Positions 62,066 to 63,300 of a stretch of 64,000 nucleotides of DNA are shown here, piece by piece. Origin of the DNA: a virus. Positions within the stretch are counted from its first letter, which is position 1. Every line of letters begins with the position of its first letter. The position numbers and the translations under genes are program-made. The stretch is from the UHGV virus genome UHGV-0168042, one strand, 5' to 3'. A model generated the notes under the pieces. The model had not been told where the DNA came from. It searched no databases and saw nothing but the letters and a program-made list of their open reading frames with translations.

Positions 62066-63132
62066 CACTTGCCGGGTACGTCTCCGGCGAGGGCTTCCAC
62101 CTCCGTATGCTTTTCGGCGCACCGCGCCCTGGCTGCAATTCGGTAACAGGGGATGCACAACCCTGGCTTCCAGCGTGATTAGCGCCTTCAGCATGACGGG
62201 ATATACCCGTAGTAGGATGTTATCCCAGAAAGCCATTAATCAATGGCTGTTACGCGGGAGGGACGTAACAGGTAAGGGCGCTGACCAGAAAGACCTGACC
62301 CTTCTCATTCATCTGGTTAATCACACCAGCGCCCTTGCCTGTTATGCCTCCCCGTTCCCTAATACACAGACGGGGACACTCTGCGGTCGATTTTTTGACG
62401 GGGGACGACTCATACCCCGTGGCGTCTGGCTTCTTAGGCCGCTACCATCATCAGATCATCGTTTGCATTTACTTTAATGGTCAGTTTATAAACCGCCGCA
62501 AAGTCGCTAACCATGACGAAAACCCTAAAAAAGCCCACCCGAAGATGGGCAAATACGCTACATCTCACACAAGAAAGAAGCCGACTGCCTGAGCTGGATT
62601 CACTTTCAAATGCCCGCTGAAAGGGATCACAAGTCGGCTTCTTTCTTGATGCGGCACTCTCTCCGCCCGTCACCGCTCTGTCTCGGTTGTCGCGTTTGCC
62701 ACGCCAGCCGTAACGAGGTTTAAAGTCTTTGCACGTTTCCATCACTCGACTGCCGTCTGTGGCTGTTCGTTGCAGCGGGGGTGCCTCCCCCTGGGGATAT
62801 CCCCGGCCTTACCCCATTCTTTCAAGACACAATGCAAGGCCACATCCGCATAGGTGCATTACCGCAACATTAAGGAGACTCAGGGCAAAAGGTAACCGCC
62901 ACAAAAATCCCTATGCCTCCTTAATGTTGAAGATGTGCATTGATGATTAGATGCAGCATGTACCGTTACTCTCTGCCGGACCATCATCAATAAACACCTT
63001 AAAAAGGCCTTCCGTGGCTCAACATGTATTGTCGTTTACTCCGCAAAGTGCTCTCTCTGAAACCACTTTCCGCACTAAACCTGCTGAACTTTGGCCTGCA
63101 CGGTGCCAAAGCGTGCTCTTGCGTTACTATAC

Positions 63133-63143
63133 TTTTCTAACAC
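63133..63143. promoter_or_regulatory. Operator-like motif TTTTCTAACAC
   Basis: Motif family member in ORF-poor region; further copy at 63290-63300. Confidence 0.35.
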
Positions 63144-63300
63144 TTTAATTTGTTAAATGCTGGTGGGCGAACAATAACCAATAAGTGACTATCAAGCCCA
63201 GCAAGCGAAACGTGGGTACCGCCCACCAGCAAGGAAAATTCTATGTTAAGTTACCTTCACAATCAATACATTCGAATTGTGATTTTAGATTTCTAACACA

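Follow-up and report, generated by a model that had tools for sequence, protein, structure and literature searches.

Positions 62066-63300 of the virus genome UHGV-0168042, analysed as a stretch of 64,000 nucleotides (nt; hereafter the window), probably constitute the untranslated, structured 5′ leader and regulatory region of a C1-repressed early transfer RNA (tRNA) operon, the counterpart of the ban operon of phage P1. Within this leader lies a compact module with a startless ten-codon frame, kept across divergent phages, which appears to work like, and probably derives from, the mRNA-like domain of transfer-messenger RNA (tmRNA). Judged from its sequence, the window is a D6-like phage-plasmid of the P1 family: the whole segment aligns with Escherichia phage D6 over its full length (98.5% identity), and phage P1 matches the first 488 nt of the segment (62066-62553) at 91% identity. 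With the tRNA genes on the minus strand, the operon reads from right to left and the segment forms its 5′ leader. A preliminary description of this DNA, which had placed the segment immediately upstream of the tRNA cluster, was therefore right in the transcriptional sense.

The neighbourhood is consistent with this assignment. In D6, the counterpart of the segment is flanked by a pmgS-like head gene and tRNA genes, and in the window the gene 5′ of the segment, on the minus strand with its stop at 63301, encodes a PmgS-like head protein. In P1, the counterpart of the 488 nt lies between the C1-controlled promoter of the ban operon (Pban, operator Op72) and trnA, where its sole annotation is a "dicF-like region" (68791-68892).

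We propose the following sequence of events. In the lysogen, a C1-type repressor would occupy two operators, O1 and O2, that flank the promoter 156 bp apart, and the operon would be silent. Upon derepression, RNA polymerase would start at about position 63231 and produce a leader of ~1165 nt, made up of a 5′ stem-loop followed by a chain of independent, exchangeable RNA modules bounded by stable hairpins. A portion of the transcripts would stop at an intrinsic terminator (T1) ~700 nt from the start, giving a long leader RNA, while read-through transcripts would pass the tmRNA-like module and continue into the tRNAs. RNase P would then process the transcript at the first tRNA, and the long stems would be cleaved by RNase III or RNase E, which would release the modules. 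Finally, the tag module might be read in a trans-translation-like manner, in which case ANDDLMMVAA, an SsrA-like but altered peptide, would be appended to stalled chains during lytic growth.

Promoter and operators

The elements proposed to control transcription are as follows.

63279..63303, minus strand: operator O1, C1-type copy (consensus ATGTGTTAGAAAAcTAAAaT), conserved in 22 of the 22 relatives covering it
63238..63266, minus strand: sigma-70 promoter, TTGATT-17 nt-TAGAAT, the only site scoring at least 9 of 12 in the scan
63122..63149, minus strand: operator O2, in the same orientation as O1 and 156 bp from it; position weight matrix (PWM) score 25.2, core kept in all relatives
63156-63151 and 63131-63126, minus strand: candidate second promoter P2, TTAACA, 19-nt spacer and TATAGT, overlapping O2; read from sequence, with weaker evidence

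The hexamers of the main promoter lie at 63266-63261 (TTGATT) and 63243-63238 (TAGAAT) on the minus strand, and both are at least 90% conserved among 23 distinct relatives, with a spacer of variable sequence. The transcript is predicted to start at ~63231, which places O1 13 nt 5′ of the -35 hexamer and O2 ~85-110 nt 3′ of the start. A 28-nt direct repeat (D1, 156-bp spacing) contains GTGTTAGAAA, which occurs 12 times in the 64-kb window with at most one mismatch, compared with 4.3 occurrences expected. A PWM trained on ten sites (consensus ATGTGTTAGAAAAcTAAAaT) likewise finds 12 sites in the window, including an overlapping divergent pair, not used in training, just 5′ of the lpa homologue; other sites lie just upstream of the hrdC and ref homologues. 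According to the P1 record, the uhr-hrdC-dmt operon is C1-controlled. In P1, lpa and ref are also under C1 control. Since the motif thus stands 5′ of homologues of C1-controlled P1 genes, we read it as the operator of a D6-type C1 repressor, which would bind these sites and could loop the DNA between O1 and O2. The C1-operator consensus of P1 (ATTGCTCTAATAAATTT) is absent from the window.

Two bivalent operators lie outside the segment. One overlapping divergent pair (58542-58585) lies between orf5 and the lpa homologue and is the analogue of P1 Op86, and a second pair (23522-23565) lies 5′ of the hrdC homologue.

Inverted repeats and RNA structure

The features of the leader and the adjoining tRNAs, in the order of transcription, are listed below with their folding free energies (dG) and z-scores (z).

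63158..63231, minus strand: 5′-terminal stem-loop I5, 12-bp arms; dG -33.8, z -4.4
63030..63116, minus strand: two stem-loops, structured on the minus strand only; z -3.1
62930..63000, minus strand: stem-loop I4; dG -25, z -3.4
62865..62929, minus strand: stem-loop I2, hypervariable loop; dG -31.1, z -5.8
62809..62904, minus strand: candidate small open reading frame (ORF), TTG start, 31 amino acids (aa), MWRLPFALSLLNVAVMHLCGCGLALCLERMG, hydrophobic
62777..62804, minus strand: two short GC hairpins, GGGGAUAUCCCC and GGGGGAGGCACCCCC, nearly invariant in relatives
62668..62778, minus strand: module M3, ~110 nt, conserved in sequence; z +0.37
62567..62652, minus strand: stem-loop I3, 17-bp perfect stem; dG -37.9, z -5.1
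62527..62550, minus strand: intrinsic terminator T1, GCCCAUC-UUCG-GGUGGGC followed by U6; dG -12.5, z -4.1; scan match
62349..62525, minus strand: tag-template module, 5′ GGGUUUUCGUC; homology and covariation
62504-62490 with 62393-62378, minus strand: long-range helix of the tag-template module
62434..62475, minus strand: resume-codon context AAAGUAAAU (62475-62467) and startless frame (62466-62434); Rfam, ARAGORN at 80% threshold
62420-62398 and 62376-62349, minus strand: hairpins of the tag-template module, the second with a conserved UGUGUAUUA loop
62253..62355, minus strand: long stem-loop I1, 27-bp imperfect stem; dG -53.4, z -5.9
62067..62252, minus strand: 3′ part of the leader, up to the 5′ end of tRNA-Arg(UCU) at 62066; ~91% identity to P1, at least 95% among D6-like elements
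61990-62066, minus strand: tRNA-Arg(UCU); ARAGORN, Rfam
61912-61987, minus strand: tRNA-Thr; ARAGORN, Rfam

All five inverted repeats named in the preliminary description exist, although one had been placed ~10 nt off and several are longer than given. The misplaced one, described as an imperfect 25-bp stem, is real but spans 62257-62283 and 62327-62353 (27 nt, 81% complementary). Arms reported as perfect over 15 bp and over 11 bp are in fact perfect over 17 bp (62570-62586 with 62632-62648) and 12 bp (63158-63169 with 63220-63231), respectively. The two palindromes are located at 62777-62791 and 62793-62804, and the cattaaggag pair is perfect over 13 bp (21 nt at 86%; 62865-62877 with 62917-62929). 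To these we add a further pair, 62927-62947 with 62983-63003. The density of stems far exceeds chance: the segment contains three exact stems of at least 12 bp where 0.01 are expected (300 dinucleotide shuffles), and 0 of the 101 other 1.2-kb windows of the 64 kb match it.

Folding of the minus-strand RNA gives z-scores of -3.1 to -5.9 for the single hairpins. Between 62950 and 63150, only the minus strand is structured (z -3.3/-3.4, compared with ~0 for the plus strand), which fits a transcript of the minus strand. Over the full leader, 33 pairs carry compensatory changes, compared with 17.1 ± 2.5 in column shuffles (0 of 500 reached this number) and 9-20 in slid controls. One copy, on plasmid pSa1423-160k (locus L008), was left out of the structure counts. 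Its leader differs from all other copies by many small indels, which are probably assembly errors.

These data bear out the earlier suggestion of structured noncoding RNA, in that conserved stems carry compensatory changes and the half shared with P1 belongs to a widespread phage RNA family. The Rfam covariance-model scan called for at the outset, run at permissive thresholds, returned only tRNAs above threshold in the segment. That such density is unusual for a promoter leader, as had been remarked, is beside the point here, given the conserved promoter, the two operators and the homology to the P1 ban leader.

As previously stated, the segment holds no convincing ORF as far as conventional genes are concerned: there are 0 Pfam matches, the long stop-free frames shift among relatives, and no conserved conventional protein-coding gene was found by homology. 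Two longer frames were considered and rejected. A plus-strand ORF (62193-62396), antisense across I1, belongs to phrog_27020 (68 aa, function unassigned); its frame is broken in P1 and in two relatives (L007 and L010), and the family therefore most likely consists of miscalled ORFs. A 103-aa minus-strand ORF spans terminator T1, its tail is the tag frame, and an in-frame TAG cuts it in P1 and most D6-like elements. There are nonetheless two short frames in the segment, one of 31 codons (62904-62809) and one of 10 codons without a start (62466-62434).

A tmRNA-like tag-template module

The startless frame reads GCA AAC GAU GAU CUG AUG AUG GUA GCG GCC UAA, i.e., ANDDLMMVAA-stop. It is identical in P1 and all D6-like elements and has no conserved start codon; an in-frame TAG stands eight codons 5′ of it in P1 and most D6-like elements, at which place the window has TAT. 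The Rfam model tmRNA_permuted matches 62539-62434 with 25.4 bits (E = 0.023 for 4.5 kb and 0.0036 for 0.7 kb), and the alignment is supported by UAAAUGCAAACGAU and GUAGCGGCCUAA, which represent the context of the resume codon and the final part of the tag frame. The tmRNA_permuted, alpha and beta models match the tag region in every member of the family with 25-31 bits, and the relatives score 27-31. With its threshold lowered to 80%, ARAGORN reports the "resume consensus agtaaatgcaaacgatga" together with ANDDLMMVAA, and the tRNA-like pieces that it pairs with the tags are arbitrary. The E. coli SsrA tag, ANDENYALAA, also has ten codons.

Homologues of the module are present in 701 phage and 620 plasmid records. 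Plasmids of 110 kb from Klebsiella carry a 78%-identical module with the tag ANDDVVLMAA-stop, and it was by searching phage genomes with this Klebsiella module that the 701 phage records were found. In the seven phage examples that were fetched, the frame always has 10 codons and begins GCA AAC GA(N) after AUAAAU. The tags found are given here.

ANDDVVLMAA: Ag3, Bas81
ANDNVFLAVA: Felixounavirus
ANDNAFLAVA: Suspvirus
ANEEMYLAVA: Vibrio siphovirus
ANEEAYLMVA: N4-like phage

The 10-codon frame is thus kept in P1 and D6, Klebsiella phage-plasmids, Ackermannviridae, Felixounavirus, Suspvirus, siphoviruses and an N4-like phage, with a peptide pattern AN[DE][DEN]x[hydrophobic]...A throughout. Its stop codon may be TAA, TAG or TGA, and codons change synonymously (GAT/GAC, GCT/GCC/GCG, GTA/GTT). 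In an alignment of 10 members from at least six phage groups (A3), 7 of 18 pairs show compensatory change, compared with 3.3 ± 1.3 in shuffles and 1-4 in slid controls. The final tag codons and the stop lie in a covarying stem (GC to AU, 5 vs 5) that resembles tmRNA helix 5, and the next hairpin has three covarying pairs. The module is invariably found within or next to tRNA clusters. Its conserved GUUUUCG start is directly preceded, in Felixounavirus and Suspvirus, by a perfect TTGACA-17-TATAGT promoter. In phage records, it is either unannotated or labelled "hypothetical protein".

Stem-loop I1 follows 3′ of the core module, and its loop bears a second copy of the family-conserved loop motif GGUGUGAUUAA. 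It is nearly invariant among D6-like elements, with one compensatory change (U-A to C-G) relative to P1.

Because no tRNA-like domain was found and the model scores are insufficient, the module was classed as resembling the mRNA-like domain of tmRNA rather than as a tmRNA. We suggest, with reserve, that ribosomes read the startless frame in a trans-translation-like way, since a fixed length, variable stop codons and synonymous changes are expected of a translated frame and not of a purely structural RNA. By extension, some 700 phages and the P1/D6 phage-plasmids could carry a compact tmRNA-like RNA whose template is read during infection and rewrites the trans-translation tag, an idea that we regard as tentative. 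Such a rewritten tag may rescue ribosomes on the phage's terms or alter the fate of tagged proteins; the LAA of the SsrA tag is recognised by ClpX. Entry into the ribosome without a canonical tRNA-like domain may involve a partner RNA, an adjacent tRNA or a hijacked host tmRNA-SmpB complex.

A competing explanation, perhaps true but not one that we favour, is that the module is a relic or an RNA whose frame is not read, i.e., a captured fragment of a bacterial tmRNA gene kept for a role as RNA, for instance in the processing or stability of tRNA precursors or as a decoy that titrates SmpB or ribosomes. It would account for the missing tRNA-like domain and the sub-threshold ARAGORN and Rfam results, for the position of the module within a precursor from which RNase P would sever the tRNAs, and for the base pairing of part of the tag in a covarying helix. 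It does not easily explain why the frame has exactly 10 codons in six divergent phage groups, why the position of the stop is fixed while its identity varies and codons change synonymously, or why the SsrA pattern is retained. The overlapping +1 frame, which begins at an AUG, does not keep a constant length.

Two candidates for an acceptor piece were tried and discarded. Terminator T1, inspected as the acceptor stem of a permuted tmRNA, has its G·U pair at 2:71 rather than 3:70 and no preceding T-arm. Module M3 was offered by ARAGORN, at the 80% threshold, as the acceptor part of a two-piece tmRNA; it was rejected because, outside D6-like elements, M3 and the tag module are not found together.

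In the Klebsiella phage-plasmids, a 150-nt tRNA-like element lies ~200-290 nt after the tag module (L053, 1752-1905; L054, ~1675-1830). A putative acceptor stem (GGGUGAU/GUCACUC) can be drawn for it, together with a tmRNA-type T-arm (GCGGGUUCGAUUCCCGC) that lies 290 nt downstream of the tag module and has no clear pairing partner, and the K. oxytoca copy encodes a UCCA end; ARAGORN makes no call on it. This element could be the missing tRNA-like partner in that lineage.

Several points weigh against the proposed leader and its tag module. First, T1 looks strong and separates the promoter from the tRNAs, and no route of read-through was identified. Second, the ban gene, which encodes a DnaB-like helicase, is absent from the downstream operon, as it is in D6, and the operon is therefore only partly equivalent to the P1 ban operon. 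Third, nucleotide conservation among D6-like elements is very high, many stems are invariant, and invariant pairs are uninformative; the conservation of I5 may in part reflect its Chi sites and not RNA structure. Fourth, the scores with the Rfam tmRNA models (RF00023, RF01849, RF01850 and RF04321) fall below the gathering thresholds (for the window, 25.4 vs 47 for RF04321 and 15.2 vs 84 for RF01850), ARAGORN at default settings calls no tmRNA in ten sources, and neither the window nor P1 nor the compact Suspvirus copy yielded a tRNA-like domain (acceptor stem with G3-U70, T-arm, CCA), which precludes a claim of canonical trans-translation. Finally, transcription of the leader itself is predicted from sequence, as are repression, partial termination and processing.

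The D6-specific 5′ half and a possible small gene

The half of the leader specific to D6-like elements (63231-62554) opens with I5, whose 12-bp stem encloses a branched loop of 50 nt and whose arms are TGCTGGTGGGCG and its complement. Pairs of its inner stem covary (CG to GC, GC to AU/UA). In the region structured on the minus strand only, helices 6, 9, 10 and 11 show some double changes, and helix 12 in I4 is paired in 95% of alignment cells. Stem-loop I2 is paired in 99.6% of cells, and two of its pairs show compensatory change (AU to GC and GC to AU, six sequences each); its loop has been swapped wholesale in several lineages.

The 31-codon frame is interwoven with I2. A strong Shine-Dalgarno sequence, AAGGAGG (62922-62916), lies in the 5′ arm of I2, 11 nt before the TTG start, which itself lies in the loop; the sequence that pairs with it forms codons 9-12 of the frame, and the ribosome-binding site is thus occluded within a stem of -31 kcal/mol. 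Most lineages retain the frame, with an N-terminus that has been exchanged yet is still hydrophobic. L022, L007 and L010 have lost it, and in the L009 group a frameshift extends it to 63 aa. Where it is intact, four synonymous changes stand against one non-synonymous change. The product has no Pfam, NCBIfam or PHROG match, and only one relative was found among 5.8 billion clusters, on another D6-like contig. We regard the frame as a candidate small gene, with considerable doubt.

If it is a gene, the D6-specific half might encode a small membrane protein, of the type I toxin kind or another, with the hairpins exerting translational control over its mRNA. This reading is conceivable but remains rather doubtful to us. 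It draws on the Shine-Dalgarno sequence sequestered by a sequence inside the ORF, on the presence of a hydrophobic peptide in every lineage in spite of N-terminal replacement, and on the ratio of synonymous to non-synonymous changes. However, the ORF has been destroyed in three lineages (by loop inversion, a shifted start and a frameshift) and extended by frameshift in a fourth, neither an antisense promoter nor a good plus-strand promoter-like site was found near it, it has no family match and a single database relative, and the I2 stem could have been kept for RNA reasons alone.

The 39-nt loop of I2 is exactly inverted between its 13-bp arms in one relative (L022, 823-887) and in plasmid NZ_CP058619.1 (56031-56151), a small hairpin-mediated event that eliminates the start of the 31-codon ORF. 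A phase-variable inversion (inverton) was considered and rejected, as the flipped form is sporadic (1 of 117 plasmids and 1 IMG/VR contig).

Terminator T1, the dicF-like label and module M3

Stem-loop I3 carries compensatory changes (AU to UA and GC to AU) in five sequences. T1, which lies next to it, has a 7-bp stem with five GC pairs, a UUCG loop and U6, as expected of an intrinsic terminator, and is common to P1 and all relatives, with a U·G to C-G change. In P1 and several D6-like lineages, a body of ~115-135 nt, annotated as "dicF-like" in P1, lies between the promoter-proximal part and T1. This body is absent from the window, from D6 and from close relatives, where only the terminator is left.

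That the segment encodes a DicF-like trans-acting small RNA (sRNA) blocking cell division is, in our view, quite unlikely. Apart from the P1 label, one could cite I3, a single-stranded stretch of 19 nt and the U-tailed T1, which together resemble in outline the 3′ end of an Hfq-type sRNA, and a weak MicA-like alignment (21.7 bits, E = 0.76). However, the Rfam model for DicF (RF00039) gave no match at E up to 1 in P1, in the D6-like loci with the module or in the window; the label is therefore unsupported for P1 and, with the module body deleted, moot for the window.

Module M3 is conserved in sequence but not energetically structured, with five small helices and limited covariation. It is shared at 81-88% identity (nhmmer E ~1e-27) with a Pantoea P1-like plasmid, Klebsiella phage Kp4865-1 (Uetakevirus) and lambdoid prophages of Mixta and Phytobacter, and each element has a single copy. 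In the lambdoid prophages, it lies in the early-left transcript 3′ of cI, once with a tRNA directly after it; on the Pantoea plasmid, it stands ahead of a 140-aa ORF that looks tciA-like in size and position. M3 is absent from P1 and HK022.

Processive antitermination at M3, through a nut- or put-like signal, would enable read-through of T1, yet we think it very unlikely. M3 does occupy the place of nutL/putL in lambdoid prophages, with no N-like gene after it, lies 5′ of a strong terminator in the window, and has a boxA-like CUCGUUA, a spacer of 6-8 nt and a short GCGUGGCAnACGC hairpin, a geometry judged by eye. Against this, each element has one copy, with no partner on the PR side in the loci examined, and M3 is not similar to the PL/putL region of HK022, so that homology to put was rejected on sequence; moreover, P1 has the same terminator without M3, and M3 has neither energetic structure nor more than weak covariation.

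Several sub-threshold matches to the STnc100 model (29-41 bits, threshold 47) recur in the same operons of relatives, and none in the window: L002 4150-4269, L003 1120-1257, L038 2810-2942, L043 5127-5254 and L055 2221-2330. In P1-like elements they precede tciA, in lambdoid prophages they directly follow M3, and in Ag3 the match falls between the tag module and tRNA-Ser.

Chi sites and possible roles of the repeats as DNA

Each arm of I5 holds one Chi octamer (GCTGGTGG), at 63230-63223 on the minus strand and 63159-63166 on the plus strand; these are almost invariant in relatives, with one T-to-C change in L007. The arms had at one point been considered RepA-iteron-like, a notion dropped once they proved to be Chi sites. 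The window contains 41 Chi sites (17 plus, 24 minus), ~25 times the expectation from base composition, in agreement with P1, in which 50 Chi sites were reported in 94.8 kb and Chi is the commonest octamer (PMC12315714). I5 may have a role at the DNA level, at the RNA level, or both.

It is highly improbable that the inverted repeats in general act as DNA, be it as a lytic origin, a packaging site, a recombination hotspot or an array of protein-binding palindromes. The two inverted, almost invariant Chi sites in I5 point in this direction, as does the I2 loop flipped in two records, which shows that the DNA there can extrude or template-switch. With 41 Chi sites in 64 kb, however, two in 1.2 kb are unremarkable by themselves, the loop is flipped in just 1 of 117 plasmids, and structure in 62950-63150 is confined to the transcribed strand. 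In P1, repL contains oriL and pacA contains pac. The lytic origin or packaging signal proposed earlier finds no counterpart in the segment, which has no DnaA boxes, iterons or AT-rich block, a GC content of 50%, and 1.6 GATC per kb, below the window average of 3.5 per kb; pacA lies 4-5 kb away, at 56.7-58.1 kb. Nor did the idea of a mobile-element remnant hold up, as neither transposase traces nor terminal repeats were found, though the segment is clearly mosaic.

Distribution and the downstream operon

The segment is found in 589 plasmid records, of which 106 have it in full length and the remainder only the part shared with P1. Among 5426 complete E. coli genomes, 99 carry it, all on D6-like plasmids and none on the chromosome, and the NCBI pipeline annotates no feature at the segment in these carriers. 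Mosaicism is evident among relatives: some D6-like elements have kept the "dicF-like" module of P1, and M3 and I3 have been replaced in other lineages.

Downstream of the leader, the order is tRNAs, a 78-aa membrane protein, an SPFH lipoprotein, tRNA-Met, a Tad2-like ORF, operators, lpa and pacA/B. The tRNA cluster is a swappable cassette, the first tRNA being Arg(UCU) here and in some relatives, and Asn(GUU) in P1, D6 and others; in the relatives (L001-L019), tRNAs Tyr(GUA) and Ser(UGA) may or may not be present, and the leader adjoins whichever tRNA is first. A tRNA-like remnant (61826-61899, minus strand) follows right after tRNA-Thr. It combines an acceptor-like stem of 10 bp (GGUAAGGGUA/UACCCUUACC) with a T-arm of the sequence GGGUUCGAAUCCC, and neither ARAGORN nor Rfam calls it. 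Inside the cluster (60229-61273, minus strand), an SPFH/Band-7 lipoprotein (275 aa) and the 78-aa membrane protein are encoded at the place where P1 and D6 have plp/upl or tciA/tciB. The 191-aa ORF 3′ of tRNA-Met (58971-59546, minus strand; D6 orf6; L037 6904-7479) matches PF11195, which is Tad2-like and belongs to the anti-Thoeris family, and its homologues appear in RefSeq as "MW1434 family type I TA system toxin".

Implications

If the proposed reading holds, a 1.2-kb blank, unannotated in ~100 E. coli genomes and ~600 plasmids, becomes a regulated, modular RNA leader. The analysis also yields the probable operator motif of D6-type repressors; for this motif and the D6-specific modules, we found no earlier description in a search that covered literature other than the D6 and P1 genome papers. 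The long-standing "dicF-like" label of P1 does not withstand a covariance-model test, and what is conserved in the P1 leader is a tmRNA-type tag template. The searchable literature yielded no report of the tmRNA-like module, which default ARAGORN and the Rfam thresholds miss. Should the template be read, many well-known phages, among them P1 and the relatives of Felix O1 and Vi1 that serve in typing and therapy, would interfere with or replace the ribosome-rescue tagging of the host; to our knowledge, phage interference with host rescue tagging has so far been documented only for the full tmRNA genes of a few phages. The module family may also serve as a compact, natural mRNA-like domain for probing the minimal needs of trans-translation.

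Comparison with known systems

The leader as such is a variant of the known arrangement of the P1 ban operon. The two are alike in position and orientation, leading from a C1-operated promoter to the first tRNA (in P1, Pban/Op72, the dicF-like region, trnA and trnT), and are 91% identical over the tRNA-proximal 488 nt, terminator hairpin and tag module included. They differ in the promoter-proximal part, which in the segment is unrelated and ~560 nt longer, in the operators, which are two separated monovalent sites of the sequence ATGTGTTAGAAAAcTAAAaT in the segment and one overlapping bivalent site in P1, where the sequence is ATTGCTCTAATAAATTT, and in the upstream neighbour (a pmgS homologue vs dmt). 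Moreover, the segment lacks the body of the "dicF-like" module, and the downstream operon lacks the ban helicase gene.

Two further systems share single traits with the D6-specific half. Type I toxin-antitoxin systems (hok/sok, tisB/istR, zorO/orzO) also combine a small hydrophobic ORF with a ribosome-binding site buried in a very stable hairpin, whereas the ORF of the segment has neither a promoter for an antisense RNA nor a family match, has been inactivated in several lineages, and would be driven by a repressor-controlled lytic promoter. Like lambda nut and HK022 put, M3 takes its place in the early-left transcript of lambdoid prophages, and it precedes a terminator in the window; unlike put, it has no similarity to that sequence, no second copy and no energetic structure.

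Within phage tRNA transcription units, the module may be likened to the stable species 1 and 2 RNAs of T4, small non-tRNA RNAs released by tRNA-processing enzymes. The likeness is one of description, and no tag-like frame is known in the T4 RNAs, in which respect the module stands apart.

A further comparison is with tmRNA. The module shares with SsrA an A-rich stretch and UAAAU before the GCA resume codon, ten codons of the form AN[DE][DEN]...A, as in the E. coli tag, and a stop located, like that in tmRNA helix 5, within the loop region of a helix that covaries. In contrast to tmRNA and two-piece tmRNA, no pseudoknot ring, CCA end or tRNA-like domain was found in its ~180-280 nt, and its tags end in MVAA, LMAA, LAVA or LMVA instead of the LAA of SsrA. 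It also differs from tmRNA in being encoded by phages, within their tRNA clusters.

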